Assembly (NCBI GenBank): GCA_964016885.1
Contig: OZ024741.1
Span: forward strand, 275,900,001 to 275,964,000
Reading direction: 5' to 3'
Source: Eledone cirrhosa
Taxonomy: Eukaryota
Length of the DNA stretch: 64,000 nucleotides
The first letter of the stretch is position 1; every line of letters begins with the position of its first letter. Below the pieces are notes generated by a model that was not told the origin of the DNA, searched no databases, and saw only the letters and a program-made list of their open reading frames with translations. The position numbers were made by a program, and so were the translations under genes. Shown one piece after another: positions 10,737-41,407 of this stretch.

Positions 10737-10898
10737 TGAGTTTATATGTGCAAAGACATATTAGATGGCTGAATCCCCTTCCTATCACCAATCACTTTAC
10801 AGAGAGTATTATGAGTGTTTGTGTAGATTACCAACACAAGGGAGGGCGTCATGTCCTTCACATAACTGTGGGATCCCCCCAGCCCTTTGTTTGGAAAG

Positions 10899-10937
<39 letters not shown>

Positions 10938-10941
<4 letters not shown>

Positions 10942-13061
10942 AAAGGGAATGATACAGGTGAGCTTGCCCTCACAAGTGCTGAGAAGAAAGATGCATGGAA
11001 GAGTCATTATGATAGATTACTACATGAGGAGAATGCATGGGAACAAGAGACCCTACCCCAAGTAGACCCTATAGAGGGGCCAGCAGTACAAGTCAGCAGC
11101 AATGTAGTAAGTAAGGCAATCAAAGATATGAAGATGGGGAAGGCAACCGGTCCATCGGGTATAGCTGCCGAGATGGTGAAGGCATCTGGGTCTGTAGGTC
11201 ACACTATAACCACATGTATTGTTAACCAGGTAATACTAGAAGGTGTCATACCAAAAGATTGGTGCAGTAGCATCATTGTCAACTGCTACAAAGGTAAAGG
11301 TGATGCACTAGATAGAGGAAACTATAGCGGTATAAAGCTGGTGGACCAGGTCATGAAAGTAACAGAAAGAGTTATAGCACAGTTGATTAGGGACCGGGTG
11401 AAACTGGACGAGATGCAATTTGGGTTTGTACCAGGAAGAGGCACCACTGATGCCCTCTTCCTTGTGAGGCAGTTACAGGAAAAGTACCTAGCTAAAAGTA
11501 AGCCACTCTACCTGGCATTTGTCGACCTTGAGAAAGCCTTTGACAGAGTTCCATGTGCTATAATCTGGTGGGCTCTTAGAAAACTAGGAGTAGATGAATG
11601 GCTTGTGAAAGCAGTACAAGCCATGTATAGGGGAGCAATCAGCAAAGTTAGGATTAGCAATGAGTATAGCGAGGAATTTAGCGTACAGGTTGGGGTCCAC
11701 CAGGGCTCTGTTCTTAGCCCTCTCCTGTTCACCATAGTCCTGCAGGCAATAACGGAGGAGTTTAAGACCGGATGCCCATGGGAACTCGTATGCCGATGAC
11801 CTCGCACTTATAGCTGAATCTATGGTAGAACTAGAGAAGAAATTCCAAACTTGGAAGCAGGGACTAGAAAGAAAGGATCTCAAAGTCAACATGACAAAGA
11901 CTAAGGTCCTTGTAAGTAGATGAGAAAACAGAACCCAGATCCCCTCAGGGAAATGGCCTTGCTCAGTGTGTAGGAAAGGTGTAGGTAGGAACTCCATTCT
12001 CTGCCACAAATGCAAACAATGGGTACACAAGAGATGTAGCGGGATCTCAGGAAGCTTAATTAAGAATGTAGGCTTCACATGCAACAGCTGTGTTGGGACA
12101 GCAAGCAGCAAACAGCCACAGGAAACAAGTACCACCAATCTCTGGGAGGGCTCTGTAGAAACAGTAGACAGCTTCTGCTACCTAGGTGACCGAATTAGCA
12201 GCGGAGGTGGGTGTTCAGAAAGTACAATAAGTAGGGTAAGAACGGGATGGAAGAAGTTTAGGGAACTACTACCACTGCTAGCTGCAAAAGGCTTCTCCCT
12301 CAAAATGAAAGGCAGACTGTATGATGCGTGTATCCGAACAGCGATGTTGCATGGTAGTGAGACCTGGGCGCTGAAGGTGGAAGACTTACGTAGATTAGAG
12401 AGAAACGAAGCCTGCATGCTCCGATGGATGTGTAACAGTAATATACGTGAACGACAAAGCATAAATGAATTGAGAGAGAGACTAAGCATAAGAGGAATCA
12501 AATGCTGTGTGCAGGAGAGGCGGTTGCACTGGTATGGACATGTGATGCGTATGAAGGATGACAGCTGCATAAAAAGGTGCAGAGCACTAGAAGTCGATGG
12601 AAACCACGGAGTGGGAGACCCAAGATGACCTGGGATGAGGTGATAAAAGCCGACCTTACCCAATTACACCTCTCAAAGACGATGACACACGACCGTGACC
12701 TCTGGCGTCATGCAGTAATACAGAGTACCCGACCTCCCATGGGTACAAGCTGAAGCATATAGACAATATGCCCCCACACCCCCCACCGCAAGGTGGTCGT
12801 GGAGGTGCCACGGCAAAAAAGCACCCAGCCCACACTGTAAAGTGGACGTGTAGGCGCCACGAAAAAGCACCCAGCACTCACTGTAAATGAGGTTGGTGTT
12901 AGGAAGGGCATCCAGTTGTAGAAATCAAGCCAAATAAGTTCCTGTATGAGCAAGGCATGGTCAGCCGACCAGACACTGCCCACAACAGGACAACCCGTCT
13001 AACCCATGCTAGCATGGAAGAACGGACGTAAAACGGTGATGATGATGATGATGATGATGAT
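10938..13061 (+). mobile_element. RTE-clade LINE, 5'-truncated and frameshifted (family A, long 3' UTR)
   Basis: RT motifs KATGPSGI, YKGKGD, QFGFVPGRGTTDA, FVDLEKAFDRV, GVHQGSVLSP, YADD (frameshifted), YLG and RRLHWYGHV; (GAT)n tail. Confidence 0.95.
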
Positions 13062-20827: not shown

Positions 20828-23015
20828 TCATCATCATCATCATCATCATCGTTTAACGTCCATATTCCACGCTTGCATGGGTTTGGACGGGAGTTTTCCC
20901 GTTTGAGGCAAGAGTGGTTGTCTTGCTAGCATAGGACTGTCTGGCGGGTTTTCTACAGCTGGATGCACTTCCTAACACCAACCATGTTTATAGTGTGGAC
21001 TGGGAGGTTTTTACCGTGTTACCTACATGGCCACATTACAGCGTGGACTGTGTGTTTTTTTGTCGTGACACCTACACGACCTCATTTGTTTCGGACTGGA
21101 TGTTGTGGTACCAACATAACTTTACATTGAAAGGGGTGGTGTGGATGGGGTGGGGGTAGTGGGACGGGGGTGTATTTTTGTTAGAGGTGCCTACTGACTG
21201 TAGTAGGTTTCACTTTGTACTTAGGTAAGGCGGGTCTTCTGTATTACTGTGTAGCGCCAAAGATCTCGGTCCAGTGACATTGTCTTGGAGAGGTGTAAGT
21301 GTGTGAGGTCGGAATTTATCAAGTCATCCCAGGTTTTTCTGGGTCTGCCTACTCCGTCTATTTTTATTGCCCTGCACTTTTTTATACAGCTGTCGTCTTT
21401 CATGCGTATCACGTGACCATACCAACGTAGTCTTCTCTCGAGTAAACAACATCTGATCCCTCTTATTTCTAATTTTTCCCTTAGTTCGTTTATGCTTTGC
21501 CATTCACTTATATTTCTATTACACATCCAGCGGAACATGCAAGCTTCGTTCCTCTCCAGTCTGCGTATATCCTCTGCACACAATGCCCAGGTCACTGCCA
21601 TGCAGCATTGCTGTTCGTATGCAGGCATCATACAGCCTGCCTTTCATTTTTAGAGAGAACCCTTTAGCGGCTAATAGTGGTATAAGCTCTCTGAACTTTT
21701 TCCATCCAGTTCTGACTCTAGCTACTGTACTTTCAGAGCACCCTCCCCCACTGCTGATTTTATCACCCAGGTAACGGAAGTTGTCCACTATTTCTATAGA
21801 ACCATCTGTGCAATGGAATGAGCTAGTATTCTGTGGGCACTTGCTGCTACTTATTGCACCAGAGCACCGGCCACATATAAAATCTATGTTCTTAGTTAGC
21901 TTACCTGTGATCCCACTACATCTTTTATGCACCCATACTTTGCATTTGGGACATAAAATGGAGTTTCTACCTACTCCTTTCCTACACACTGGGCATGGCC
22001 ATTTCCCGGATGGGACCGATGCCCTATTTTCCTTCCTACAAACTAGAACTTAGACAGGGCCATGCTTCCATGTTTGGAATTTCTTCTCTAGTTTGGCCAT
22101 TGATTCAGCTATGAGCATTAGATCATCTGCGTATAAGAGTTCCCATGGGCAGCCGATCTTGAACTCCACTGTTATAGCCTGAAGGGCAATAATAAATAGT
22201 AGGGGGCTAAGAACGGAGCCCTGATGAACACCAACTTTTACGCTAAACTCTTCACTATATTCGTTGTTAATTCTAACCTTGCTGACTGTTTCTTTATACA
22301 TGGCTTGTATAGCTCTCACAAGCCATTCATCAACACCTAGTTTTCTAAGAGCCCACCAGATAATGGAACGGGGGACTCTGTCAAAGGCTTTCTCCAAGTC
22401 GACAAAAGCTAAGTATAGGGGTTTACTTTTAGCTAGGTACTTCTCCTGTACTTGTCGTACAATGAAAAGAGCATCTGTGGTACTTTTACCTGACACAAAC
22501 CTGAACTGCATTTCATCTAGATCAATTCGCTCTCTGATTAGTTGCACTATTACTTTTTCTGTGACCTTTATGACCTGGTCGATTAATTTAATGCCTCTAT
22601 TGTTACCCCTATCTAGGGCATCTCCTTTACCCTTGTAGCAGTTAATGATGATGCTGTTACGCCAGTCCTTCGGAACAACCCCATTCTCTATGACTTGGTT
22701 TACTATCCGGGTGACCATGGTATGTCCCACCGTTCCAGAAGCTTTCAGCATTTCAGCAACTATTTCCGAAGGCCCAGCCGCCTTACCCATCTTCATATCT
22801 TTGATTGCCTTACTTATTATACTACCTTCGACTAACACTGCTGGTCCCTCTATTGGATCGATGTGGGGGAGACTGTCTTTCTCCCATTTATTCTCCTCAT
22901 TTAGTAGCCTTTCGTAGTGACACTTCCAAGCTACCTTCTTATCAGCGTCAGTGATGGCAAGTACACCATCATCATTAAGGACACACTTCTCCCCGACAAT
23001 ATCACGGTTTTCCTT
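20828..23015 (-). mobile_element. RTE LINE family A, 5'-truncated and frameshifted
   Basis: ORFs 22050-23066, 21519-21989 and 21221-21631 carry RT motifs (WELLYADDL) and the Cys/His finger; (CAT)n tail at the left end. Confidence 0.95.
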
Positions 23016-23299
23016 GTATACATATAGTTTTAAACCTCTACTTACATAAAATATGAGGTTTAACATAGGTGATGGTTAGTCTCTCAGTATGGTAGTAAAT
23101 CGGCAAAATCATAAAAGCGTTCAATTAAATATGCCTCAGTATTTGTTCAGTTTCACTGCATATTGAGTTCAAATCCTGCCGTGGTTAACTTAGCCTTTCA
23201 TCCTACAGAGGTCAATAAAATAAAGTACCTGTAAAATACTGTAAAAGACAATGCCTGCTGTAAAATGGTTAGTGATAGGAAGGGCATCAAGACATAACA

Positions 23300-23599
23300 C
23301 CAACCACATTTACAGTGAGGACTGGGAGCCTTTTCACCGTGTCTCCTACATGGACACCTTACAGTGTGGACTGTTGTGTCATTGACACAGTGCATGGAAC
23401 TGGAGAGGGAGGATGGGTTAGGGTGGGGTGTACATTGAGTGAAGAGGTGTCTACTGACTGTAAGTTTGTATGCAATGGCAGTCGGGTCTTCAGTACAACT
23501 GCATGGCATCAAAGGTCTCGATCCAGTGTCATTGTCTTAGAGAGGTGTAGGTGGGCAAGGTCAGTTTTTATCACCTCGTCCCAGGTTTTTCTTGGTCCA

Positions 23600-23601
<2 letters not shown>
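23300..23601 (-). mobile_element. Short RTE family A 3' fragment
   Basis: GPRKTWDEVIKTDLAHLHLSKTMTLDRDL; 5' end abuts (TA)n. Confidence 0.8.
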
Positions 23602-23645
<44 letters not shown>

Positions 23646-23653
23646 CATATATA

Positions 23654-23777
23654 TATAGTAGATAGCCAGGGCCCGAAGGCTGAGCTCTTGCCATTTCAAC
23701 TGCAAATTCTAGACATCTGGAATTTGGTGTCGAAACGGCTAGAGCTCACATGTTGGGCCCTGACACTCTACTATATT
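23654..23777. mobile_element. Degenerate fold-back relative of the 10329-10437 element
   Basis: gggccc..gagctc..tttc / gtcGAAAcggctagagctca..tgttgggccc in inverted arrangement next to (TA)n. Confidence 0.55.
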
Positions 23778-23903
23778 TACACCCTACTATTCAAAATATC
23801 AAGAACTCTGCTTAATAACGGCCTTACTAGTTTATAACTGGTATAATCCCAGATCCCCCTCTCTCTCTCACTCTCTCTTTCTCTCTCTATATATATATAT
23901 GTT

Positions 23904-23950
<47 letters not shown>

Positions 23951-23956
23951 ATATAT

Positions 23957-25540
23957 CATCATCATCATCATCATCATCGTTTAACGTCCATCTTCCACGC
24001 TTGCATGGGTTTGGACGGGAGTTTTCCCACTTGAGGCAAGAGTGGTTGTCTTGCTCGTATAGGACTGTCTGGCGGGTTTTCTACGGCTGGATGCCCTTCC
24101 TAACACCAACCATGTTTACAGTGTGGAACTGGGAGGTTTTTACCGTGTTACCAACACGGCCACATTACAGCGTGGACTGTGTGTTTTTTTGTCATGACAC
24201 CTACACAACCTCATTTATTTTGGATTGGATGTTGTGGTACCAACATAACTTCACATATTTTTGTTAGAGGTGCCTACTGACTGTAGTAGGTTTCGTTTTG
24301 TACTTAGGCAAGGCGGGTCTTCTGTATTACTGTGTAGCGCCAAAGATCTCGGTCCAGTGACATTGTCTTGGAGAGGTGTAAGTGTGTGAGGTCGGAATTT
24401 ATCAAGTTGTCCCAGGTTTTTCTGGGTCTGCCTACTCCGTGGCTACCGTCTATTTTTATCGCCCTGCACTCTTTTATACAGTTGTCATCTTTCATGCGCA
24501 TCACGTGACTGTACCAATGTAGTCTTCTCTCGAGTAAACAACATCTGATCCCTCTTATTCCTAATTTCTCCCTTAGTTCATTTATGCTTTGCCGTTCACG
24601 TATATTACTATTACACATCCAACAGAGCATGCAAGCTTCGTTCCTCTCCCGACTGCGTATATCCTCTGCACACAATGCCCAAGTCTCACTGCCATGTAAC
24701 ATTGCTGTTCGTATGCAGGCATCATACAGCCTGCCTTCCATTTTTAGAGAGAAACCTTTAGCGGCCAATAGTGGTATAAGCTCGCTGAACTTTTTCCATC
24801 CCGTTCTAACTGTAGCTACTGTACTTTCAGAGCACTCTCCACCACTGCTGATTTTGTCACCCAGGTAACGGAAGGTGTCCACTATTTCTATAGAGCCATC
24901 TGTGCAATGGAATGAGCTAGTATTCTGTGGGCACTTGCTGCTACTTATTGCACCTGAGCACCGGCCACATATAAAATCTATATTCTTAGTTAGCTTACCT
25001 GTGATCCCACTACATCTTTTATGCACCCATACTTTGCATTTGGGACATAAAATGGAGTTTCTGCCTACTCCTTTCCTACACACTGAACATGGCCATTTCC
25101 CAGATGGGACCAGTGCCCTATTTTCCTTCCTACAAACTAGAACTTTAGTCTTAGACAGGTTAATTTTAAGGCCTTTTGATTCTAGGCCATGCTTTCATGT
25201 TTGGAATTTCTTCTCTATTTCAGCCATTGATTCAGCTATGAGCGTTAGATGATCTGTGTATAGGAATTCCCATGGGCAGCCGGTCTTGAACTCCTCTGTT
25301 ATAGCCTGAAGGGCAATAATAAATAGGAGGGGGCTAAGGACGGAGCCCTGATGAACACCAACTTTTACGCTAAACTCTTCACTATATTCGTTGTTAATTC
25401 TAACCTTGCTGACTGTTTCTTTATACATGGCTTGTATAGCTCTCACAAGCCATTCATCAACACCTAGTTTTCTAAGAGCCCACCTGATAATGGGGCGTGG
25501 GACTCTGTCAAAGGCTTTCTCCATAGCAACAAAAGCTAAG
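23957..25540 (-). mobile_element. RTE LINE family A, 5'-truncated
   Basis: ORFs 25195-25524 and 24304-25083; closely similar to the 20828-23015 copy. Confidence 0.95.
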
Positions 25541-25564
25541 TATATATATATATATATATATATA

Positions 25565-27328
25565 TGTCATTATGTCATTATGAGAGATTGATGAATGTGG
25601 AGAACAAATGGGAGAGAGAGAAATTACCCTTGGTAGATCTGACAGAGGGACCAGCTATTGAGATTGACGAATATAGGGTCCAAGAGGCGATTAGGGAAAT
25701 GAAAAATGGTAAGGCTGCCGGACCATCGGGAATAGTTGCTGAGATGCTGAAGGCATCAGGGGACGTAGGCACTAAACTGGTTGCACACGTCATCAATCAG
25801 GCTATATATGCTGGTGTCATACCCAAAGACTGGTGCAGCAGTATTCTCATAAATTGCTACAAAGGTAAAGGGGATGCTTTGGAGAGGAGCAATTATAGGG
25901 GTATAAAACTGATAGATCAGGTTATGAAAGTGGCAGAAAGGATTTTAGCACAACTAATTAGAGAAAGGGTCAAACTGGATGAGATGCAATTTGGTTTTGT
26001 GCCTGGGAAGAGTACAACAGATGCCCTCTTCTTGGTGAGACAATTGCAAGAGAGGTTCTTAGAGAAGAATAAGCCACTATACTTAGCCTTTGTTGACCTA
26101 GAGAAGGCCTTTGATAGGGTACTCCGATCTGTCATCTGGTGGTCCCTAAGGAAACTAGGTGTTGAGGAATGGCTTGTGAGAACAGTACAAACTTTGTACA
26201 GAGGTGCTGTCAGTAAAGTCAGGGTAGGAATGGAGTTTAGTGAGGAATTCCAGATACAAGTAGGAGTACATCCAGGTTTGGTCCTCACCCAGCTCTTGTT
26301 CATTATAGTCCTCAAGCCATAACAGAGGAGTTTAAGACTGGCTGTCCATGGAAACTTCTCCATGCTGACGATCTGGTTCTTATAGCAGAATCAGTAGAGG
26401 AGCTAGAGAATAAATTCTGGCTATGGAAACAGCAGTTGGAAGCAAGAGGACTGAGAGTGAACCTAGCTAAGACAAAAGTGTTGATGAGTAGAAAAGAGGA
26501 CAAAACTCGGATTCCGTCAGGGAAATGGCCATGTTCGATATGCAGAAAAGGAACTGGCATAAATTCTATAAAATGCACACAATGCAGATCCTGGGTACAC
26601 AAGAGATGTAGCGGGATAGCAGGCAAACTAACAGGTAGGGAGAAATATGTATGCAGTAGATGTACAGGGAAATTAGACAGTAGAAGTCGCATTGATAGAC
26701 ACATTTTTCAAATGCAGGAGGGCGCTATAGAAGTGGTGGATAGCTTCCGGTACCTAGGAGATCAGATTAGCATGGGAGGAGGGTGTTCCGAGGCCATAGT
26801 ATCTAGAATAAGGGCGGGTTGGAAGAAGTTTAGGGAGCTGCTTCCTCTGTTGACGAAGAAGGGTTTCTCCCTGCGTATGAAAGGCCGGTTGTATGATGCC
26901 TGTGTGAGGAGCGCGATGCTGCATGGTAGTGAGACATGGGAGCAACTGCAGAGGATATGCGACGGCTGGAGAGAAATGAGGCAAGCATGCTCCGTTGGAT
27001 GTGCAGTGTAAATGTGCGTGAACGACCCAGCATAAATGTGTTGAGAGAAAAACTGTGTCTGAGAGGGATAGAATGTAGTATACGGGAGAAGAGACTGAGG
27101 TGGTATGGAAATGTGATGCGCACGGAGGATGACCGATGGGTGAAGAAGTGCCAGTTGAAGGAAGACGTGGTAGAGGTAGACCACGTAAAACATGGGCGGA
27201 GGTGGTGAGAACAGACCTCAGATCATTGAAGCTCATGGTGGAGATGACGAGAGACCGTGACGAGTGGAGAGATGCTGTGCTGAATAAGACCTGTCCCACC
27301 CTTGCAAGCAAGGAAAAGCGGACGTAAA

Positions 27329-27362
<34 letters not shown>
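25565..27362 (+). mobile_element. RTE LINE family B (ORF runs to the tail), 5'-truncated
   Basis: ORFs 25564-26322, 26436-27011, 26936-27208 and 27136-27327, ending KTCPTLASKEKRT* immediately before (GAT)n. Confidence 0.95.
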
Positions 27363-27363
<1 letters not shown>

Positions 27364-27450
27364 ATATATATATATGTGTGTGAATAAATGAAGTAATTCC
27401 GTCGGAAAAGTCCAGGAAAAAAGGGTGCTCTATGTAGGTTACAGAGCTTA

Positions 27451-27647
27451 ATAGTTATGTAATAAACAGCATAAGGCAATTATTCCATTTACCAGTGGTT
27501 TCTTAAAAGCAAAAAATTTTGCTTTCAATCCTCAGAATGAAAAAAGAGACCAGGATTTTTTCATTCTGAGGATTGAAAGCAAAATTTTTTGTTTTTAAGA
27601 AACCACTGGTAAATGGAATAATTGCCTTATGTTGTTTATTACATAAC

Positions 27648-27650
<3 letters not shown>
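27451..27650. repeat. 200-bp near-perfect palindrome with 3' half-hammerhead-like arms
   Basis: ~95-bp arms around gagaccagga; minus-strand arm reads aggatt GAAA gcaaaa-tt-ttttgc TT. Confidence 0.8.
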
Positions 27651-27688
<38 letters not shown>

Positions 27689-27689
27689 G

Positions 27690-27721
<32 letters not shown>

Positions 27722-27797
27722 TATACATTATGAAGAGAGAAGAAACATTTAGATATAATTAGTAATAAAATGTATCATACCTAAACTGCTCCTAAAT

Positions 27798-27887
27798 TCC
27801 TCGACTACGTAGTTTCGTGGCATAAACAAAAACAATATATCATAAAGACATAGAGTCCCTGCGAGGTCTGCCGACTTATCAAGAGGA
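27798..27887 (-). ncRNA. Type I hammerhead ribozyme, U3-A8 variant (copy 1)
   Basis: tcctc TTGATAA gt(c)ggca...tgccac GAAA cta-cg-tag TC gagga. Confidence 0.8.
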
Positions 27888-28392
27888 TACCTCATTTTAC
27901 TAGTCTCAAGAACGCGTCTACACGACGTGAGAAAGAATCCCAAAAGGCGGAGGGGGAGATAGTCACGCGATATAACGGTTGAGAAACAGAGCTAAGCCTC
28001 CTATAACCTCGAAGAAAATACCACGGAGGCGGAGGGGGTATTTATATCGAGGCCGCAGAAGAGGTGGTGAAGAAGGCGAGAAGTATGAGTAATGGAAGCT
28101 TTCCAGCTGTCCCCACACTTCAAAGATTGCTCGACCAGAGGGAGTTATTAACAATATATTTAGAAACACACAGATACATGCGGACACACACATATATACA
28201 TGAATGCATCCGCACCCAACTGTGAGTTAAGGGTGCCAACTTCACCGATGTTGCTCAATGAATGACTGGGACAGACCAATTCAGTTGAACTAGACTGAAC
28301 CAGTATCAGAGTTAAAAATACATTATGAAGAGAGAAGAAACATTTAGATATAATTAGTAATAAAATGTATCATACCTAAACTGCTCCTAAAT

Positions 28393-28482
28393 TCCTCGAC
28401 TACGTAGTTTCGTGGCATAAACAAAAACAATATATCATAAAGACATAGAGTCCCTGCGAGGTCTGCCGACTTATCAAGAGGA
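28393..28482 (-). ncRNA. Type I hammerhead ribozyme, U3-A8 variant (copy 2)
   Basis: Identical to copy 1, 595 bp away. Confidence 0.8.
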
Positions 28483-29320
28483 TACCTCATTTTACTAGTC
28501 TCAAGAACGCGTCTACACGACGTGAGAAAGAATCCCAAAAGGCGGAGGGGGAGATAGTCACGCGATATAACGGTTGAGAAACAGAGCTAAGCCTCCTATA
28601 ACCTCGAAGAAAATACCACGGAGGCGGAGGGGGTATTTATATCGAGGCCGCAGAAGAGGTGGTGAAGAAGGCGAGAAGTATGAGTAATGGAAGCTTTCCA
28701 GCTGTCCCCACACTTCAAAGATTGCTCGACCAGAGGGAGTTATTAACAATATATTTAGAAACACACAGATACATGCGGACACACACATATATACATGAAT
28801 GCATCCGCACCCAACTGTGAGTTAAGGGTGCCAACTTCACCGATGTTGCTCAATGAATGACTGGGACAGACCAATTCAGTTGAACTAGACTGAACCAGTA
28901 TCAGAGTTAAAAATACATTATGAAGAGAGAAGAAACATTTAGATATAATTAGTAATAAAATGTATCATACCTAAACTGCTCCTAAATTCTAAATGCGGAT
29001 GCATTCATGTATATATGTGTGTGTCCGCATGTATCTGTGTGTTTCTAAATATATTGTTAATAACTCCCTCTGGTCGAGCAATCTTTGAAGTGTGGGGACA
29101 GCTGGAAAGCTTCCATTACTCATACTTCACGCCTTCTTCACCACCTCTTCTGCGGCCTCGATATAAATACCCCCTCCGCCTCCGTGGTATTTTCTTCGAG
29201 GTTATAGGAGGCTTAGCTCTGTTTCTCAACCGTTATATCGCGTGACTATCTCCCCCTCCGCCTTTTGGGATTCTTTCTCACGTCGTGTAGACGCGTTCTT
29301 GAGACTAGTAAAATGAGGTA

Positions 29321-29410
29321 TCCTCTTGATAAGTCGGCAGACCTCGCAGGGACTCTATGTCTTTATGATATATTGTTTTTGTTTATGCCACGAAACTACG
29401 TAGTCGAGGA
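29321..29410 (+). ncRNA. Type I hammerhead ribozyme, U3-A8 variant (copy 3)
   Basis: Stem I tcctc 29321-25 / gagga 29406-10; core TTGATAA 29326-32; GAAA 29392-95; predicted cleavage after C29405. Confidence 0.8.
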
Positions 29411-29915
29411 ATTTAGGAGCAGTTTAGGTATGATACATTTTATTACTAATTATATCTAAATGTTTCTTCTCTCTTCATAATGTATTTTTAACTCTGATAC
29501 TGGTTCAGTCTAGTTCAACTGAATTGGTCTGTCCCAGTCATTCATTGAGCAACATCGGTGAAGTTGGCACCCTTAACTCACAGTTGGGTGCGGATGCATT
29601 CATGTATATATGTGTGTGTCCGCATGTATCTGTGTGTTTCTAAATATATTGTTAATAACTCCCTCTGGTCGAGCAATCTTTGAAGTGTGGGGACAGCTGG
29701 AAAGCTTCCATTACTCATACTTCTCGCCTTCTTCACCACCTCTTCTGCGGCCTCGATATAAATACCCCCTCCGCCTCCGTGGTATTTTCTTCGAGGTTAT
29801 AGGAGGCTTAGCTCTGTTTCTCAACCGTTATATCGCGTGACTATCTCCCCCTCCGCCTTTTGGGATTCTTTCTCACGTCGTGTAGACGCGTTCTTGAGAC
29901 TAGTAAAATGAGGTA

Positions 29916-30005
29916 TCCTCTTGATAAGTCGGCAGACCTCGCAGGGACTCTATGTCTTTATGATATATTGTTTTTGTTTATGCCACGAAACTACGTAGTC
30001 GAGGA
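29916..30005 (+). ncRNA. Type I hammerhead ribozyme, U3-A8 variant (copy 4)
   Basis: Identical to copy 3; predicted cleavage after C30000. Confidence 0.8.
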
Positions 30006-30744
30006 ATTTAGGAGCAGTTTAGGTATGATACATTTTATTACTAATTATATCTAAATGTTTCTTCTCTCTTCATAATGTATTTTTAACTCTGATACTGGTT
30101 CAGTCTAGTTCAACTGAATTGGTCTGTCCCAGTCATTCATTGAGCAACATCGGTGAAGTTGGCACCCTTAACTCACAGTTGGGTGCGGATGCATTCATGT
30201 ATATATGTGTGTGTCCGCATGTATCTGTGTGTTTCTAAATATATTATATATATATATATATATATAATCCCACCGTCTTCACATCCATTCCAATATCATA
30301 CATGAATCTTTCTCTCTCTCTCTCTGTCTGTCTCTCTCTCTCTTGCTTTCTATCATTCATTCTATTATCTTATCTTGTCACCTCCCTAATTCCCCCCTAT
30401 TTATCTTTTGTTAATCTCTCTTCTCTTGCTTGCGCAATCTTTTCTTTCCTCCTTCTTTCCCTACATTTCACTATTTGTTAGCTTGACTGTCAGCTGGCTG
30501 CTGAATATTTTATATTCTCGCTTCATTCTACCCTGTCAATATCTCTCACTTACATAACTTTCAATCTTATGTCACTCTCTTTATGATAATTTTTTAATCT
30601 CTCCTCCATTTCTCTAAGCCCAGTTAATGCTTTTTCCTTCCAGTGAGGCAAAAAGAGAGAAAGAGAGACAAACCAACTAAAAAACTTGACACGTGACTAA
30701 GGATTTTATATCTTACAAGGTTTTCCCTTCAACATCATCAATGT

Positions 30745-31611
30745 CAATCTCAGTCACAATCTCGTTATTATCACAATCTCGTTATTGTCAGTCACAATCT
30801 CTTTATTATCAGTCACAATCTCGTTATTATCACAATCTCATTATTGTCACAATCTCGTTATTGTCACAATTTCGTTATTATCAGTCAAAATCTCGTTATT
30901 ATCAGTCCCAATCTCATTATTGTCTGTCACAATCTCGTTATTATCGCAATCTCGTTATTATCAGTCCCAATCTCGTTATTATCAGTCCCATTCTCGTTAT
31001 TGTCTGTCATAATGTCGTTATTATCACAATCTCGTTATTATCAGTCACAATCTCATTATAGCTCACAATCTCGTTATTATCAGTCACAATCTCGTTATAT
31101 CAGTCACAATCTCGTTACTGTCAGTCACAATCTCGTTATTATCAGTCACAATCTCGTTATTATCAGTCACAATCTCGTTATTATCAGTCACAGTCGCGTT
31201 ATTATCAGTCACAATCTCGTTATTATCAGTCACAACCTCGTTATTATCAGTCACAATCTCGTTATTATCAGTCACAGTCGCGTTATTATCAGTCACAATC
31301 TCGTTATTATCAGTCACAATCTCGTTATTAGCAGTCACAATCTCGTTATTATCAGTCACAATGTCGTTATATCAGTCACAATCTCGTTACTGTCAGTCAC
31401 AATCTCGTTATTATCAGTCACAATCTCGTTATTATCAGTCACAATCTCGTTATTATCAGTCACAGTCGCGCTATTATCAGTCACAATCTCGTTATTATCA
31501 GTCACAATCTCGTTACTGTCAGTCACAATCTCGTTATTATCAGTCACAATCTCGTTACTGTCAGTGACAATCTCGTTACTGTCAGTCACAATCTCGTTAC
31601 TGTCAGTCACA
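30745..31611. repeat. 21-bp minisatellite (tcagtcacaatctcgttatta) with 17-bp variants
   Basis: Direct inspection. Confidence 0.95.
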
Positions 31612-31849: not shown

Positions 31850-34800
31850 ACAATTGGTACAACCACTCACTGGGGTGTCACTCTAGATGTGCTACTGGTA
31901 CAACCAGTTGTGGGGTGTCACTCTAGATGTGACACTGGTACAACCAATTGTTGGGGTGTCACTCTAGATGTGCCACTGGTACAACCAGTTGTTGGGGTGT
32001 CACTCTAGATGTGCTACTGGTACAACCAGTTGTTGGGGTGTCACTCTAGATGTGACACTGGTACAACCAGTTGTTGGGGTGTCACTCTAGATGTGCCACT
32101 GGTAAGTCAGTTGTTGGGGTGTCATTCTAGATGTGCCACTGGTACAGTCAGTTGTTGGGGTTCCATTCTAGATGTGCCACTGATACAGTCAGTTGTTGGG
32201 GGACCACTCTAGATGTGCCACTGGTACAGTCAGTTGTTGGGTGCCACTCTATATGTGCCACTAGTACAGCCAGTTGTTGGGGTGTCACTCTAGATGTGCC
32301 ACTGGTACAACCAGTTGTTGGGTTTCACTCTAGATGTGCCACTGGTACAATCAGTTGTTGGGGTGTCACTCTAGATGTGTCACTGGTACAGTCAGTTGTT
32401 GGGGTGTCACTCTAGATGTGCCACTGGTACAACCAGTTGTTGGGGTGCCACTCTAGATGTGCCACTGGTACAGTCACTTGTTGGGGTGTCACTTAGATGT
32501 GTCACTGGTACAGCCAGTTGTTGGGGTACCACTCAAGATGTGCCACTGGTACAGTCAGTTGTTGGGTGCCACTCTAGATGTGCCACTGGTACAGTCAGTC
32601 GTTGGTGTGTGACTCTAGATGTGCCACTGGTACAACCAGTTGTTGGGGTGTCACTCTAGATGTGCCACTGGTACAGTCAGTTGTTGGGGTGTCACTCTAG
32701 ATGTGCCACTGGTACAGTCAGTTGTTGGGGTGTCACTCTAGATGTGCCACTGGTACAGTTAGTTGTTGGTGTGTCACTCTAGATGTGCCACTGGTACAAC
32801 CAGTTGTTGGGGTGTCACTCTAGATGTGCTACTGGTACAACCAGTTGTTGGGGTGTCACTCTAGATGTGACACTGGTACAACCAGTTGTTGGGGTGTCAT
32901 TCTAGATGTGCCACTGGTACAGCCAGTTGTTGGGGTTCCACTCTAGATGTGCCACTGATACAGTCAGTTGTTGGGGTACCACTCTAGATGTGCCACTGGT
33001 ACAGTCAGTTGTTGGGTGTCACTCTGGATGTGCCACTGGTACAGTCAGTTGTTGGGGTGTCACTCTAGATGTGTCACTGGTACAGCCAGTTGTTGGGGTG
33101 TCACTCTAGATGTGCCACTGGTACAGTCAGTTGTTGGGTGTCACTCTAGACGTGCCACTGGTACAGCCAGTTGTTGGGGTGTCACTCTAGATGTGCCACT
33201 GGTACAGTCAGTTGCTGGGGTACCACTCTAGATGTGCCACTGGTACAGTCAGTTGTTGGGGTGTCACTCTAGATGTGCCACTGGTACAGTCAGTTGTTGG
33301 GGTGTCACTCTAGATGTGTCACTGGTACAGTCAGTTGTTGGGGTGCCACTCTAGATGTGCCACTGGTACAGTCAGTTGTTGGGGTTTCACTCTAGATGTG
33401 CCACTGGTACAGTCAGTTGTTGGGGTGTCACTTAGATGTGCCACTGGTACAGTCAGTTGTTGGGTGCCACTCTAGATGTTCCACTGGTACAGTCAGTTGT
33501 TGGGGTGCCACTCTAGATGTGCCACTGGTACAGTCAGTTGTTGGGGTGTCACTCTAGATGTGCCACAGGTACAACCAGTTGTTGGGGTGTCACTCTAGAT
33601 GTGCCACTGGTACAGCCAGTTGTTGGGGTGTCACTCTAGTAGTGCCACTTGTACAGCCAGTTGTTGGGGTGCCACTCTAGATGTGCCACTGGTACAGCCA
33701 GTTGTTGGGGTACCACTCTAGTAGTGCCACTTGTACAGCCAGTTGTTGGGGTGCCACTCTAGATGTTCCACTGGTACAGTCAGTTGTTGGGGTGTCACTC
33801 TAGATGTGCCACTGGTACAGTCAGTTGTTGGGGTTCCACTCTAGATGTGCCACTGGTACAGTCAGTTGTTGGGTACCACTCTAGATGTGCCACTGGTACA
33901 GTCAGTTGTTGGGGTGCCACTCTAGATGTGCCACTGGTACAGTCAGTTGCTGGGGTACCAGTCTAGATGTGCCACTGGTACAGTCAGTTGTTGGGGTGTC
34001 ACTCTAGATGTTCCACTGGTACAGTCAGTTGTTGGGTGCCACTCTAGATGTGCCACTGGTACAGCCAGTTGTTGGGGTTTCACTCTAGATGTGCCACTGG
34101 TACAGTCAGTTGTTGGGGTGTCACTCTAGATGTGCCACTGGTACAGTCAGTTGTTGGGTGCCACTCTAGATGTGCCACTGGTACAGTCAGTTGTTGGGGT
34201 GCCACTCTAGATGTGCCACTGGTACAGTCAGTTGCTTGGGTACCAGTCTAGATGTGCCACTGGTACAGTCAGTTGTTGGGGTGTCACTCTAGATGTGCCA
34301 CTGGTACAGTCAGTTGCTTGGGTGCCACTCTAGATGTTCCACTGGTACAGTCAGTTGTTGGGGTGCCACTCTAGATGTGCCACTGGTACAGTCAGTTGCT
34401 TGGGTGCCACTCTAGATGTTCCACTGGTACAGTCAGTTGTTGGGGTTCCACTCTAGATGTGCCACTGGTACAGTCAGTTGTTGGCGTGTCACTCTAGATG
34501 TGCCACTGTTACAACCAGTTGTTGGGGTGTCACTCTAGATGTGCCACTGGTACAGTCAGTTTCTGGGGTGCCACTCTGGATGTGCCACTGGTACAGCCAG
34601 TTTTTGGGGTACCACTCTAGATGTGCCACTGGTACACTCAGTTGCTGGGGTACCACTCTAGATGTGCCACTGGTACAGACAGTTGCTGGGGTGCCACTCT
34701 AGATGTTTTACTGGTACAGCCAGCTATTGGGGTGCCACTCTAGATGTGCCACTGGTACAGTCAGTTGTTGTGTGCCACTCTAGATGTGCCACTGGTGTAG

Positions 34801-37800
34801 CCAGTCGTTGGGATCCCACTCTAGACGTGCCACTGGTGTAGCCAGTCGTTGGGATGCCACTCTAGATGTGCCACTGGTGTAGCCAGTCGTTGGGATGCCA
34901 CTCTAGATGTGCCACTGGTACAGCCAGTCGTTGGGATGCCACTCTAGATGTGCCACTGGTACAGTCAGTTGTTGGGGTGTCACTCTAGATGTGTCACTGG
35001 TACAGCCAGTTGTTGGGGTGTCACTCTAGATGTGCCACTGGTACAGTCAGTTGTTGGGGTGCCACTCTAGTGTGCCACTGGTACAGTTTAGTTGTTGGGG
35101 TGCCACTCTAGATGTGCCACTGGTACAGCCAGTTGTTGGGGTACCACTCTAGATGTGCCACTGGTACAGTCAGTTGTTGGGGTGTCACTCTAGATGTGCC
35201 ACTGGTACAGTCAGTTGTTGGGGTACCACTCTAGATGTGCCACTGGTACAGTCAGTTGTTGGGTGCCACTCTAGATGTGCCACTGGTACAACCAGTTGTT
35301 GGGTGCCACTCTAGATGTGCCACTGGTACAGCCAGTTGTTGGGGTACCACTCTAGATGTACCACTGGTACAGTCAGTTGTTGGGTGCCACTCTAGATGTG
35401 CCACTGGTACAGTCAGTTGTTGGGGTTTCACTCTAGATGTGCCACTGGTACAGTCAGTTGTTGGCGTGTCACTCTAGATGTGCCACTGGTACAGTCAGTT
35501 GTTGGGGTGCCACTCTAGATGTGCCACTGGTACAGCCAGTTGTTGGGGTGTCACTCTAGATGTGCCACTGGTACAATCAGTTGTTGGGGTGTCACTCTAG
35601 AAGTGTCACTGGTACAGTCAGTTGTTGGGGTGTCACTCTAGATGTGCCACTGGTACAGCCAGTTGTTGGGGTGTCACTCTAGATGTGCCACGGGTACAGT
35701 CAGTTTTTGGGGTGCCACTCTAGATGTGCCACTGGTACAGCCAGTTGTTGGGGTGTCACTCTAGATGTGCCACTGGTACAGTCAGTTGTTGGGGTGTCAC
35801 TTAGATGTGTCACTGGTACAGCCAGCTGTTGGGGTGCCACTCTAGATGTGTCACTGGTACAGCCAGCTGTTGGGGTGCCACTCTAGATGTGCCACTGGTA
35901 CAGTCAGTTATTGGGTGCCACTCTAGATGGTACAGCCAGTTGTTGGGGTGTCACTCTAGATGTGCCACTGGTACAGTCAGTTGTTGGGGTGTCACTCTAG
36001 ATGTGTCACTGGTATAGTCAGTTGTTGGGTCCCACTCTAGATGTGACACTGGTACAACCAGTTGTTGGGTGCCACTCTAGATGTGCCACTGGTACAGCCA
36101 GTTGTTGGGGTACCACTCTAGATGTGCCACTGGTACAGTCAGTTGTTGGGTACCACTCTAGATGTGCCACTGGTACAGTCAGTTGTTGGGTACCACTCTA
36201 GATGTGCCACTGGTACAGCCAGTTGTTGGGGTACCACTCTAGATGTGCCACTGGTACAACCAGTTGTTGGGAGTGCCACTCTAGATGTGCCACTGGTACA
36301 GTCAGTTGCTGGGGTGCCACTCTAGATGTGCCACTGGTACAGTCAGTTGTTGGGTACCAGTCTAGATGTGCCACTGGTACAGTCAGTTGCTGGGGTACCA
36401 GTCTAGATGTGACACTGGTACAATCAGTTGTTGGGTGCCACTCTAGATGTGCCACTGCTACAGTCAGTTGTTGGAGTGTCACTCTAGATGTGCCACTGGT
36501 ACAGTTAGTTGTTGGGGTGTCACTCTAGATGTACCACTGGTACAGCCAGTTGTTGGGTGCCACTCTAGATGTGCCACTGGTACAACCAGATGTTGGGGTG
36601 TCACTCTAGATGTGCCACTGGTACAGCCAGTTGTTGGGATACCACTCTAGATGTGCCACTGGTACAACCAGTTGTTGGGTGTCACTCTAGATATTCCACT
36701 GTTACAGCCAGTTGTTGGGATTCCACTCTAGATGTGCCACTATTACAACCAGTTGTTGGGAGTTCCACTCTAGACGTGCCACTGGTACACTCAGTTGTTG
36801 GGTGCCACTCTAGATGTGCCACTGGTACAGTCAGTTGTTGGGTCCCACTCTAGATGTGCCACTGGTACAGTCAGTTGTTGGGGTGTCACTCTAGATGTGC
36901 CACTGGTACAGTCAGTTGTTGGGGTGTCACTTAGATGTGTCACTGGTACAGCCAGCTGTTGGGGTGCCACTCTAGATGTGCCACTGGTACAGTCAGTTAT
37001 TGGGTGCCACTCTAGATGGTACAGCCAGTTGTTGGGGTGTCACTCTAGATGTGCCACTGGTACAGTCAGTTGTTGGGGTGTCACTCTAGATGTGTCACTG
37101 GTATAGTCAGTTGTTGGGTGCCACTCTAGATGTGCCACTGGTACAACCAGTTGTTGGGTGCCACTCTAGATGTGCCACTGGTACAGCCAGTTGTTGGGGT
37201 GCCACTCTAGATGTGCCACTGGTACAGTCAGTTGTTGGGTACCACTCTAGATGTGCCACTGGTACAGTCAGTTGTTGGGTAACACTCTAGATGTGCCACT
37301 GGTACAGCCAGTTGTTGGGGTACCACTCTAGATGTGCCACTGGTACAACCAGTTGTTGGGAGTGCCACTCTAGATGTGCCACTGGTACAGTCAGTTGCTG
37401 GGGTGCCACTCTAGATGTGCCACTGGTACAGTCAGTTGTTGGGTACCAGTCTAGATGTGCCACTGGTACAGTCAGTTGCTGGGGTACCAGTCTAGATGTG
37501 CCACTGGTACAGTCAGTTGTTGGGTGCCACTCTAGATGTGCCACTGCTACAGTCAGTTGTTGGAGTGTCACTCTAGATGTGCCACTGGTACAGTTAGTTG
37601 TTGGGGTGTCACTCTAGATGTACCACTGGTACAGCCAGTTGTTGGGATTCCACTCTAGATGTGCCACTGGTACAACCAGATGTTGGGGTGTCACTCTAGA
37701 TGTTCCACTGGTACAGCCAGTTGTTGGGATTCCACTCTAGATGTGCCACTAGTACAACCAGTTGTTGGGAGTGCCACTCTAGACGTGCCACTGGTACAGT

Positions 37801-40800
37801 CAGTTGTTGGGGTGCCACTCTAGATGTGCCACTGGTACAGTCAGTTGTTGGGTCCCACTCTAGATGTGCCACTGGTACAGTCAGTTGTTGGTGTGTCACT
37901 CTAGATGTGCCATTGGTACAGTCAGTTGTTGGGGTGTCACTCTAGATGTGCCACTAGTACAACCAGTTGTTGGGGCGTCACTCTAGATGTTCCACTGCTA
38001 CAGTCAGTTGTTGGGGTGCCACTCTAGATGTGCCACTGGTACAGCCAGTTGTTGGGGTACCACTCTAGATGTGCCACTGGTACAGTCAGTTGTTGGGGTG
38101 TCACTCTAGATGTGCCACTAGTACAACCAGTTGTTGGGGTGTCACTCTAGATGTTCCACTGCTACAGTCAGTTGTTGGGGTGCCACTCTAGATGTGCCAC
38201 TGGTACAGCCAGTTGTTGGGGTCTCACTCTAGATGTGCCACTGGTACAACCAGTTGTTGGGGTGTCACTCTAGATGTGCCACTGGTACAGTCAGTTGTTG
38301 GGGTACCACTCTAGATGTGCCACTGGTACAGTCAGTTGTTGGGGTGTCACTCTAGATGTGTCACTGGTATAGTCAGTTGTTGGGTGCCACTATAGATGTG
38401 CCACTGGTACAGCCAGTTGTTGGGGTACCACTCTAGATGTGCCACTGGTACAGTCAGTTGCTGGGGTACCACTCTAGATGTGCCACTGGTACAGTCAGTT
38501 GTTGGGGTCCCACTCTAGATGTGCCACTGGTACAACCAGTTGTTGGGGTGTCACTCTAGATGTGCCACTGGTACAGCCAGTCGTTGCGGTGCCACTCTAG
38601 ATGTGCCACTGGTACAGTCAGTTGTTGGGGTGTCACTCTAGATGTGCCACTAGTACAACCAGTTGTTGGGGTGTCACTCTAGATGTTCCACTGCTACAGT
38701 CAGTTGTTGGGGTGCCACTCTAGATGTGCCACTGGTACAACCAGATGTTGGGATGTCACTCTAGATGTGCCACTGGTACAGCCAGTTGTTGGGATTCCAC
38801 TCTAGATGTGCCACTGGTACAACCAGTTGTTGGGTGTCACTCTAGATGTTCCACTGGTACAGCCAGTTGTTAGGATTCCACTCTAGATGTGCCACTAGTA
38901 CAACCAGTTGTTGGGAGTGCCACTCTAGACGTGCCACTGGTACAGTCAGTTGTTGGGGTGCCACTCTAGATGTGCCACTGGTACAGTCAGTTGTTGGGTC
39001 CCACTCTAGATGTGCCACTGGTACAGTCAGTTGTTGGGGTGCCACTCTAGATGTGCCACTGGTACAGTCAGTTGTTGGGGTGTCACTCTAGATGTGCCAC
39101 TAGTACAACCAGTTGTTGGGGTGCCACTCTAGATGTGCCACTGGTACAGCCAGTTGTTGGGGTACCACTCTAGATGTGCCACTGGTACAGTCAGTTGTTG
39201 GGGTGTCACTCTAGATGTGCCACTGGTACAGTCAGTTGTTGGGGTGTCACTCTAGATGTGCCACTAGTACAACCAGTTGTTGGGGTGTCACTCTAGATGT
39301 TCCACTGCTACAGTCAGTTGTTGGGGTGCCACTCTAGATGTGCCACTGGTACAGCCAGTTGTTGCGGTGTCACTCTAGATGTGCCACTGGTACAGTCAGT
39401 TGTTGGGTCCCACTCTAGATGTGCCACTGGTACAGTCAGTTGTTGGGGTACCACTCTAGATGTGCCACTGGTACAGTCAGTTGTTGGTGTGCCACTCTAG
39501 ATGTGCCACTGGTATAGTCAGTTGTTGGGTGCCACTATAGATGTGCCACTGGTACAGCCAGTTGTTGGGGTACCACTCTAGATGTGCCACTGGTACAGTC
39601 AGTTGCTGGGGTACCACTCTAGATGTGCCACTGGTACAGTCAGTTGTTGGGGTCCCACTCTAGATGTGCCACTGGTACAACCAGTTGTTGGGGTGTCACT
39701 CTAGATGTGCCACTGGTATAGTCAGTTGTTGGGTGCCACTCTAGATGTGCCACTGGTACAGCCAGTTGTTGGGGTACCACTCTAGATGTGCCACTGGTAC
39801 AGTCAGTTGTTGGGATGTCACTCTAGATGTGCCACTGGTACAGTCAGTTGTTGGGGTGTCACTCTAGATGTGCCACTAGTACAACCAGTTGTTGGGGTGT
39901 CACTCTAGATGTTCCACTGCTACAGTCAGTTGTTGGGGTGCCACTCTAGATGTGCCACTGGTACAACCAGTTGTTGGGTGTCACTCTAGATGTTCCACTG
40001 GTACAGCCAGTTGTTAGGATTCCACTCTAGATGTGCCACTAGTACAACCAGTTGTTGGGAGTGCCACTCTAGACGTGCCACTGGTACAGTCATTTGTTGG
40101 GGTGCCACTCTAGATGTGCCACTGGTACAGTCAGTTGTTGGGTCCCACTCTAGATGTGCCACTGGTACAGTCAGTTGTTGGGGTGTCACTCTAGATGTGC
40201 CACTGGTACAGTCAGTTGTTGGGGTGTCACTCTAGATGTGCCACTAGTACAACCAGTTGTTGGGGTGCCACTCTAGATGTGCCACTGGTACAGCCAGTTG
40301 TTGGGGTACCACTCTAGATGTGCCACTGGTACAGTCAGTTGTTGGGGTGTCACTCTAGATGTGCCACTAGTACAACCAGTTGTTGGGGTGTCACTCTAGA
40401 TGTTCCACTGCTACAGTCAGTTGTTGGGGTGCCACTCTAGTTGTGCCACTGGTACAGCCAGTTGTTGGGGTGTCACTCTAGATGTGCCACTGGTACAGTC
40501 AGTTGTTGGGTGCCACTCTAGATGTGCCACTGGTACAGTCAGTTGTTGGGGTACCACTCTAGATGTGCCACTGGTACAGTCAGTTGTTGGGGTGCCACTC
40601 TAGATGTGCCACTGGTACAGTCAGTTGTTGGGGTGTCACTCTAGATGTGTCACTGGTACAGTCAGTTGTTGGGGTGTCACTCTAGATGTGCCACTGGTAC
40701 AACCAGTTGTTGGGGTGTCACTCTAGATGTGCCACTGGTACAGCCAGTCGTTGCGGTGCCACTCTAGATGTGCCACTGGTACAGTCAGTTGTTGGGGTAT

Positions 40801-41407
40801 CACTCTAGATGTGCCACCGGTGCAGCCTGTCGTTGGGGTGCCACTTTAGTTGTGCCACTGGTACAGCCACTCGCCGGGTGTCATTCTAGATGTGCCACTG
40901 GTACAGCCACTGGCTTGGGTGCCACTCAAGATGCACCAGTGATACAATCAGTTGTTGGGGTGCCACTCTAGATGTGCCACTGGTGCAGTTAGTTGTTGGG
41001 GTGCCACTCTAGATGTGTCACTGGTGCTGCCTGTCGTTGGGGTTCCACTCTAGATGTGCCACTGGTGCAGCCAGTCGTTGGGGTTTCACTCAAGATGTCC
41101 CACTGGTGCAGTTAGTTGTTGGGGTGCCACTCTAGATGAACCAGTGGTACAGTCAGTTGTTGGGGTGCCACTCTAGATGTGCCACTGGTGCAGTTAGTTG
41201 TTGGGGTCCCATTCTAGATGTGCCCCTGGTACAGTCAGTTGTTGGGATGCCACTCTAGATGTGCCACTGGTACAGCCACCCTAGATGTGTCACTTGTGCA
41301 GCCACTCGCTGGGGTGCCACTCTAGATGTGCCACAGGTACAGCCAGTCATTGGGGTTCCACTTTAGATGTGCCACTGGTGCAGTCATTGTTGGGGTCCCA
41401 CTCTAGA
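31850..41407. repeat. 41-bp satellite, ~9.5 kb and ~230 units, with higher-order repeats
   Basis: Unit ctctagatgtgccactggtacagtcagttgttggggtgtca with 40-bp variants; divergent edges. Confidence 0.98.

Follow-up and report, generated by a model that had tools for sequence, protein, structure and literature searches.

The insertion at 27723-30245 of the window, the 64-kb stretch of DNA analyzed here, belongs to a non-autonomous retrozyme family that probably moves as a circular RNA monomer, copied by rolling target-primed reverse transcription from two start sites by the protein of a Neptune-type Penelope-like element (PLE). It is an active-looking retrozyme of a known class and is new in its core, tail length, and insertion form; retrozymes, U3-A8 hammerhead cores, units of this length, and inverted Penelope ends are already published. 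In the accessible parts of PMC7229834, PMC8557442, and 10.64898/2026.07.22.740005, the re-entry of retrozymes into the genome and the origin of PLE inverted ends with a one-sided tail are open questions. The family offers thousands of young, short, and easily aligned insertions, from which exact start sites, a pairing rule, and a one-template signature can be read. Together with resident candidate helpers, these insertions make both questions directly testable biochemically and serve as a natural experiment on PLE and retrozyme mobilization.

The window insertion consists of two head-to-head arms, of 2.13 and 2.10 units, within a (TA)n tract (Table 1), and 4 extra bases separate the minus-strand arm from the plus-strand arm at the central joint. 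Unit position 1 is defined as the base after the predicted cut (window 29406). The repeat period across 27723-30245 is 595 bp, and the sole internal substitution, at 29129, is private to the right arm (28994-30245), which agrees with an earlier note on this DNA that described a near-identical 595-bp unit with one change at about 29129. The same note read the region as one tandem array; 27723-28989 is instead the reverse complement, joined head-to-head to 28994-30245. That reading missed the three most informative features of the insertion: its inverted arm, its pair of fixed ends, and its (TA)n target.

Six-frame translation of the unit and the 64-kb window yields short frames only, without a PLE protein match, and neither contains a reading frame for a reverse transcriptase (RT) with GIY-YIG. 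The 165-nt tail between the two start sites contains a conserved hairpin at 29581-29640. The TATA-like word at 29757-29764 and the GC-rich box after it are, as a guess, a candidate internal promoter, and similar words are visible in copies of a sister family. Sequencing runs of three organisms contain the window's stretch. Their contigs have TA joints at 29485 and 29649-29652 in X1 and X6, and at 30244 in X5, which indicates that the unit ends are not assembly artefacts.

Table 1. Features of the retrozyme insertion and its flanks, in window coordinates.
Feature	Position	Strand	Detail
Left (TA)n target tract	27648..27722		
Left arm, 2.13 units	27723..28989	-	outer end at unit position 80 (near start site); inner stop at position 4
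U3-A8 type I hammerhead	27798..27887	-	predicted cut 27803/27802
U3-A8 type I hammerhead	28393..28482	-	predicted cut 28398/28397
Head-to-head junction	28990..28993		4 extra bases
Right arm, 2.10 units	28994..30245	+	inner stop at unit position 184; outer end at position 245 (far start site)
Type I hammerhead, first copy	29321..29410	+	predicted cut after C29405
Stem I	29321-29325 with 29406-29410	+	
Core TTGATAA (UUGAUAA in RNA)	29326-29332	+	
Stem II	29333-29339 with 29386-29391	+	bulged C29335
Stem II extension hairpin	29340..29385	+	46-nt insert
GAAA	29392-29395	+	
Hairpin taking up 3' strand of stem I	29406..29476	+	unit positions 1-71; near start site follows its base
Predicted monomer, 595 nt	29406..30000	+	cut site to cut site; putative circular RNA
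165-nt tail	29486..29650	+	between near (29485) and far (29649-29657) start sites
TATA-like word	29757..29764	+	GC-rich box after it
Type I hammerhead, second copy	29916..30005	+	predicted cut after C30000
Right (TA)n target tract	30246..30266		

The host genome is 3.0 Gb in size and rich in microsatellites. An exact hammerhead 32-mer occurs in it 6,676 times and its reversed control not once, so the hammerhead is not a chance motif. The exact junction of position 80 with TA has 2,382 occurrences genome-wide, and one phase of the position-245/TA junction has 619. A search with the unit produced 1,683 candidates; the 38 that were scored mostly match it at 96-100% identity. Loci differ from each other by about 3% (median), as expected of a dispersed multicopy family that spread recently. 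The 32-mer count, the single haplotype of each insertion, and the variant pattern described below bear out the earlier proposal of a recently active, non-autonomous, Penelope-related retrozyme family, and the genome-wide search suggested with that proposal finds it dispersed and not confined to a single locus. An older sister retrozyme family aligns with almost the full unit at about 73% identity; it is non-coding and has the same hammerhead, with a different stem II extension and unchanged end positions. Three of its four listed places were examined (L244, G000 C12:19398297; L245, C3:154162231; L246, C4:94562587), and L245 has the far-plus-near two-armed form of the window family.

Each unit contains a type I hammerhead whose stem I, TTGATAA core, stem II, GAAA, and palindromic stem III lie where the earlier note had put them. 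The motif has the elements of its type in U3-A8 form: the 3-8 pair, G10.1-C11.1, GAAA, NUH, and three stems. The stem II insert, previously given as about 45 nt, and the predicted cuts after C29405 and C30000 are likewise correctly placed (the insert is 46 nt); what that account left out is a further pair of hammerheads on the minus strand. The insertion thus holds four complete hammerheads, two on each strand, because its left arm is a reverse complement. Rfam scans of the site, the covariance-model check that had been suggested, matched no hammerhead model and returned only weak microRNA-type hits.

In predicted folds, the catalytic hammerhead lies at -21.6 kcal/mol, 2.4 above the local minimum of -24.0 kcal/mol. 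The stem III palindrome forms no hairpin alone, and its intermolecular duplex is predicted at -12.9 kcal/mol. Stems I and III are unformed in the full-circle fold prediction (probability 0.0). The hairpin of positions 1-71, also conserved in the sister family, would tie up stem I; it may act as an off-state of the ribozyme and could protect the circle. Across nine aligned sequences, 10 of the 12 pairs of stems I-III are invariant and the other 2 are broken in some copies, with no covariation, and the alignment of the whole hammerhead structure does not exceed column shuffles. The stem II extension hairpin has 13 pairs with 96.6% of cells paired in the same nine-sequence alignment, a value not above shuffles, and the pair is kept in 5 of 5 shared variants at its paired sites. 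The hammerhead stems are invariant in the sister family, about 73% identical overall.

The form of the insertions was established at 101 loci, comprising 30 best hits, 48 taken in chromosome order from the matches to the hammerhead 32-mer, and a further 23 found by end pattern; the counts omit L151 and overlapping duplicate loci. Arm ends do not lie at the predicted cut. They lie past it, by about 80 nt (near) or about 245 nt (far; range 241-253). Sixty-two loci are two-armed and head-to-head, and 39 are single-armed. Among the 62, 58 pair a near with a far end, 1 has two near ends (L023), none has two far ends, and 3 have one irregular end (L097, L123, L221). The 48 loci chosen without regard to their ends include 21 near-plus-far pairs, no same-type pair, and 2 irregular ones, and their single arms are split between 13 near and 12 far; independent choice of ends is rejected in this set at p = 4.8e-7. 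TA runs adjoin 157 of 163 outer ends and 36 of the 39 inner ends of single arms. Central junctions of the two-armed loci show overlap in 41 cases, blunt joining in 9, short inserts in 6, and complex structures in 6. Arm length exceeds one unit in 82 of 163 arms and two units in 29, with a maximum of 7.55 units, and both arms are longer than one unit in 13 loci. The form typical of PLEs, an inverted 5'-truncated copy with a one-sided tail, is present in 58 of the 62 two-armed loci, with a tail of 165 nt and not 30-40 nt.

Some loci show further detail. The arms of L238 are separated by a short inserted piece whose end lies at the near start site. In L087, L128, L174, and L211, one arm crosses the cut site and stops 10-14 nt later, close to the stem II base. 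At L151 (G000 C1:19618400-19625500), an entire far-plus-near insertion is duplicated 2.55 kb away.

Each locus carries essentially one haplotype. Counted from substitutions only, since a divergence of 1.2% with gaps was largely gap placement, divergence between the arms of one locus is 0.48% (44 of 9,255 sites), compared with 2.9% between loci, and same-register sites within loci disagree at 68 of 20,088. No variant is mirrored in both arms of a locus among the 101 loci. At sites covered at least 4 times, within-locus variants are 46 singletons versus 1 variant shared by two adjacent units (L123). Arrays that are uniform inside and differ from each other imply a one-unit bottleneck followed by regrowth, for which a sealed circular monomer would be the simplest source. 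The predicted cut site is crossed by at least 140 of 163 arms, and genome-wide its junction shows 1 deletion and 0 insertions beside the 6,676 exact copies. The near absence of indels at this junction and the single haplotype per locus indirectly support a circular intermediate.

Seamless junctions and passage across the cut site would be accounted for equally well by two-site PLE priming on an uncut linear multimer, with a slow or silent hammerhead and long arrays kept by local DNA duplication. Uncleaved RNA is the main in vitro substrate of the green anole PLE in the accessible text of PMC11167929, a local-amplification model is published in the accessible text of 10.64898/2026.07.22.740005, and the L123 arm, with its variant common to two adjacent units, is what such a process would leave. 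It is nevertheless an unlikely template: arrays uniform inside and about 3% apart would need the bottleneck and regrowth in most cycles, the within-locus variants are nearly all singletons and unmirrored, and propagated variants avoid the hammerhead. A linear cleaved monomer, turned into tandem units by end-to-end template jumping, would give the exact monomer register that is observed, and a few arms do stop within 4 nt of the cut (the window's left arm and L224 at 4, L123 at 1). The rarity of cut-site indels largely refutes it, however, and it is very improbable given that inner stops fall at positions 1-30 in only 9 of 107 cases, with no pile-up at the cut site among these 107 stops, and that no haplotype switches were seen in the examined loci.

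Several observations are signs of RNA function. Changes at template level, found in several units of a locus, are strand-biased: A>G affects 28 of 131 A and T>C affects 12 of 213 T (p = 5.5e-5). Private changes show no such bias (8 A>G, 14 T>C). This difference points to an RNA stage, and its candidate causes are A-to-I editing and selection for G-U pairs. Of the 28 A>G sites, 23 are paired (p = 0.027) and 9 have a 3' G (p = 0.055), with no significant depletion of 5' G, a sequence context that weakly favors editing. The circular fold has a z-score of -5.8 on the hammerhead strand and -1.4 on the opposite strand (40 shuffles each), and over the whole fold shared variants keep pairs in 41 cases and break them in 18, which is not significant (p = 0.07). 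In 52 loci picked by their ends only, variants common to at least 2 loci affect 1 of 44 hammerhead positions (the predicted bulge) versus 77 of 551 positions elsewhere (p = 0.02, or 0.16 when at least 3 loci are required), and singletons occur alike at 11 of 44 and 119 of 551. This depletion of shared variants suggests a ribozyme under selection, with self-cleavage predicted from its sequence.

The unit is most improbably the pseudo-LTR of an unfound autonomous PLE, or a DNA-level fold-back or satellite with a vestigial hammerhead: only 38 of 1,683 unit candidates and 150 of 10,596 GIY-YIG candidates were scored, and Neptune solo pseudo-LTR fragments share the two-armed form, but unit abuts unit without a coding insert in 101 loci, the sister family is also non-coding over nearly its whole unit, and DNA-only spread is a misfit with strand-biased mutations and fixed asymmetric ends.

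The preferred mechanism, a circular monomer rolled from two start sites, begins with retrozyme arrays that would be transcribed on the hammerhead strand. By analogy with known retrozymes, the hammerheads, probably as dimers, would excise 595-nt monomers, which a host ligase would circularize. A PLE protein acting in trans would cut both strands of a (TA)n tract, and the two DNA ends would prime at different places on one RNA, roughly 80 nt beyond the cut site for one end and roughly 245 nt beyond it for the other. The positions of the ends and their pairing are observed directly; the single RNA and a protein dimer are presumed. Each enzyme would then roll through the sealed junction, for between a fraction of a turn and 7.5 turns as seen in the arm lengths. 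The two cDNAs would join mostly by microhomology, giving the observed head-to-head insertion with a 165-nt tail on one side. Extension of only one strand would leave a single arm in (TA)n.

A more specific version is advanced tentatively, as its chances are slightly below even. A Penelope-type protein dimer may bind one retrozyme circle at two sites juxtaposed by the RNA fold, one for each cut (TA)n strand, and roll both cDNAs. Recognition of the RNA would depend on position and structure, not on sequence homology with the helper, and heritable A>G changes may enter the family through A-to-I editing. If true, the insertions would be a genomic record that explains the inverted-repeat-plus-tail structure of PLEs and the retrozyme life cycle together. 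It is hypothesized that the near and far start sites pair in the RNA: their helix has a probability of about 0.99 in the linear fold of positions 1-260 and 0.0 in the full circle, on which imposing it costs a predicted 8.2 kcal/mol.

Candidate helpers are plentiful. A genome-wide GIY-YIG search gave 10,596 candidates, of which 150 were scored, and the genome has many GIY-YIG retroelements. At least five Neptune-type families occur among 50 GIY-YIG loci, where the clade label rests on the Cys-rich linker as described in the accessible text of PMC8557442. The L061 family (G000 C1:145868500-145877500) encodes RT and GIY-YIG domains with such a linker; of the 49 matches listed, 42 combine about 98% identity with an RT-EN frame that stays open for at least 771 aa. 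Its hammerhead is also U3-A8, its target is (TA)n like that of the retrozyme, and its ends, flanked by TA, lie at +82 and +150 relative to the cut site of the L061 family; L020, L066, L070, L072, L080, and L112 each have one end of either kind. Its far end TTTCTAATATAT resembles the far end of the unit TTTCTAAATATAT, and its near end has TTTCTTTATA in common with the sister retrozyme family. The likenesses are confined to core type, near-end offset (80 versus 82), and these short end motifs. Local alignment of the post-cut segments of the unit and the L061 family scores below shuffles (463 of 500 at least as high), and DNA comparison of the unit with the 50 GIY-YIG loci gave only simple repeats and one nearby retrozyme insertion (L056).

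A second Neptune-type family (L057, L067, L073, L077, and others) has a U3-A8 hammerhead with GCAA instead of GAAA and two TA-flanked ends about 35-40 nt apart. Because there are at least five Neptune-type families and this one is also U3-A8, the partner is not fixed; judged from sequence, the L061 family is the best helper candidate and not a proven partner. Descent of the unit from the L061 family is not supported, as the unit shows no sequence homology to the L061 pseudo-LTR. No autonomous element carrying the unit was found by two hammerhead-variant patterns, which returned Neptune copies, mutated family copies, and the sister family.

The Neptune loci yielded other observations. Many short two-armed solo ends of the L061 family share TA tracts with the retrozyme. 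L114, considered as a retrozyme-Neptune chimera, is instead a small two-armed Neptune insert abutting a retrozyme arm. In many L061-family copies the protein match contains a single TGA, which seems to lie immediately ahead of the 775-aa RT-EN frame; this stretch is perhaps an intron or frameshift region. Reading the recurring TGA as selenocysteine was discarded: it is not in the C-terminal region inspected, and the listed matches imply a site before the 775-aa frame. Canonical-core hammerheads with a long stem II and a palindromic stem III, followed about 45 nt later by ends in (TA)n, occur at L066:33 and L073:4462. Another Neptune-type family (L064, L068, L074) has, by eye, a canonical-core hammerhead and two TA-flanked ends 3' of its frame, although an automated motif scan gave no signal there.

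The following comparisons draw on the accessible parts of the cited papers. Retrozymes are described as circular RNAs with PLEs as candidate mobilizers (PMC7229834), and a PLE origin has been proposed for them, with animal family lengths of 51-972 bp and with 24 of 57 Xenopus families matching known elements, nearly all PLEs (10.64898/2026.07.22.740005). At 595 nt, the unit falls within this range and is not unusually long for animals, as had been supposed. Like metazoan non-LTR retrozymes (PMC7229834; 10.64898/2026.07.22.740005), the family is built of tandem units that do not code for protein and that each bear a single type I hammerhead with a weak, palindromic stem III; it too exists in thousands of copies and shares its genome with PLEs. 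The U3-A8 core and the 46-nt stem II extension set it apart from them, as do its dispersed two-armed insertions, joined head-to-head, whose fixed ends are paired and lie in (TA)n. Unlike those 24 Xenopus families, the unit has no homology to the PLE pseudo-LTRs sampled. The word 'inverted' is absent from the main text of PMC7229834, and the accessible text of PMC13282606 does not use the word ribozyme.

An inverted copy, a one-sided 30-40 bp tail, and a (TA)n bias (Neptune, Naiad) are on record for PLEs (PMC8557442, PMC3846280). Like Neptune-clade EN+ PLEs, the family has an inverted 5'-truncated copy joined head-to-head and a one-ended tail, inserts into microsatellites, and carries its hammerhead ahead of the 3' end. 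It lacks their reading frame, its tail is 165 nt compared with 30-40, and both arms can span several whole units. Head-to-head junctions have been explained by self-priming (PMC3846280), which does not predict two fixed outer ends. In Poseidon PAc of the green anole, whose protein is a predicted dimer, two internal start sites likewise define a tail and both target strands are cut and extended (PMC11167929). Hammerhead cleavage is not needed for its insertion in vitro, where no start-site difference between strands is reported, whereas here the arms of one insertion almost always differ.

Minimal U3-A8 hammerheads occur in the Cercyon PLEs of Schistosoma (PMC4209133), a published case with which the core shares its covariation. 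The same paper reports opposite-strand hammerhead pairs 100-700 bp apart and proposes circular templates. The Cercyon motifs are heterogeneous, mostly single, and without helix III, in contrast to the uniform tandem unit and palindromic stem III of this family. Non-autonomous Chlamys elements such as MRC1 are PLE derivatives with similar multicopy head-to-tail insertions, but at their 3' ends they are usually similar to autonomous families, and canonical hammerheads are missing from most Chlamys elements (PMC8557442). Literature searches covering mostly open-access main texts turned up neither this family nor a U3-A8 retrozyme, nor any pairing rule backed by counts. Strict near/far pairing, a 165-nt tail, and evidence for a single template were likewise absent from the literature covered.

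Other elements surround the insertion. A separate small two-armed insert at 27371-27650 adjoins the same left (TA)n tract and has 95-nt inverted arms at 27451-27545 and 27556-27650, the left arm being about 75 nt longer. Its near/far form recurs in L135 and L098, and it is probably another PLE-type family. Broken RT frames at 10765-12628, 21221-25194, and 25540-27363 are presumably fragments of RTE-type LINEs, and the last of these ends in an (ATG)n tail at 27329-27363. The window also contains tandem arrays at 2178-6553 (65 bp, 68 copies), 30750-31611 (21 bp, 42 copies), and 31871-41407 (41 bp, 234 copies).
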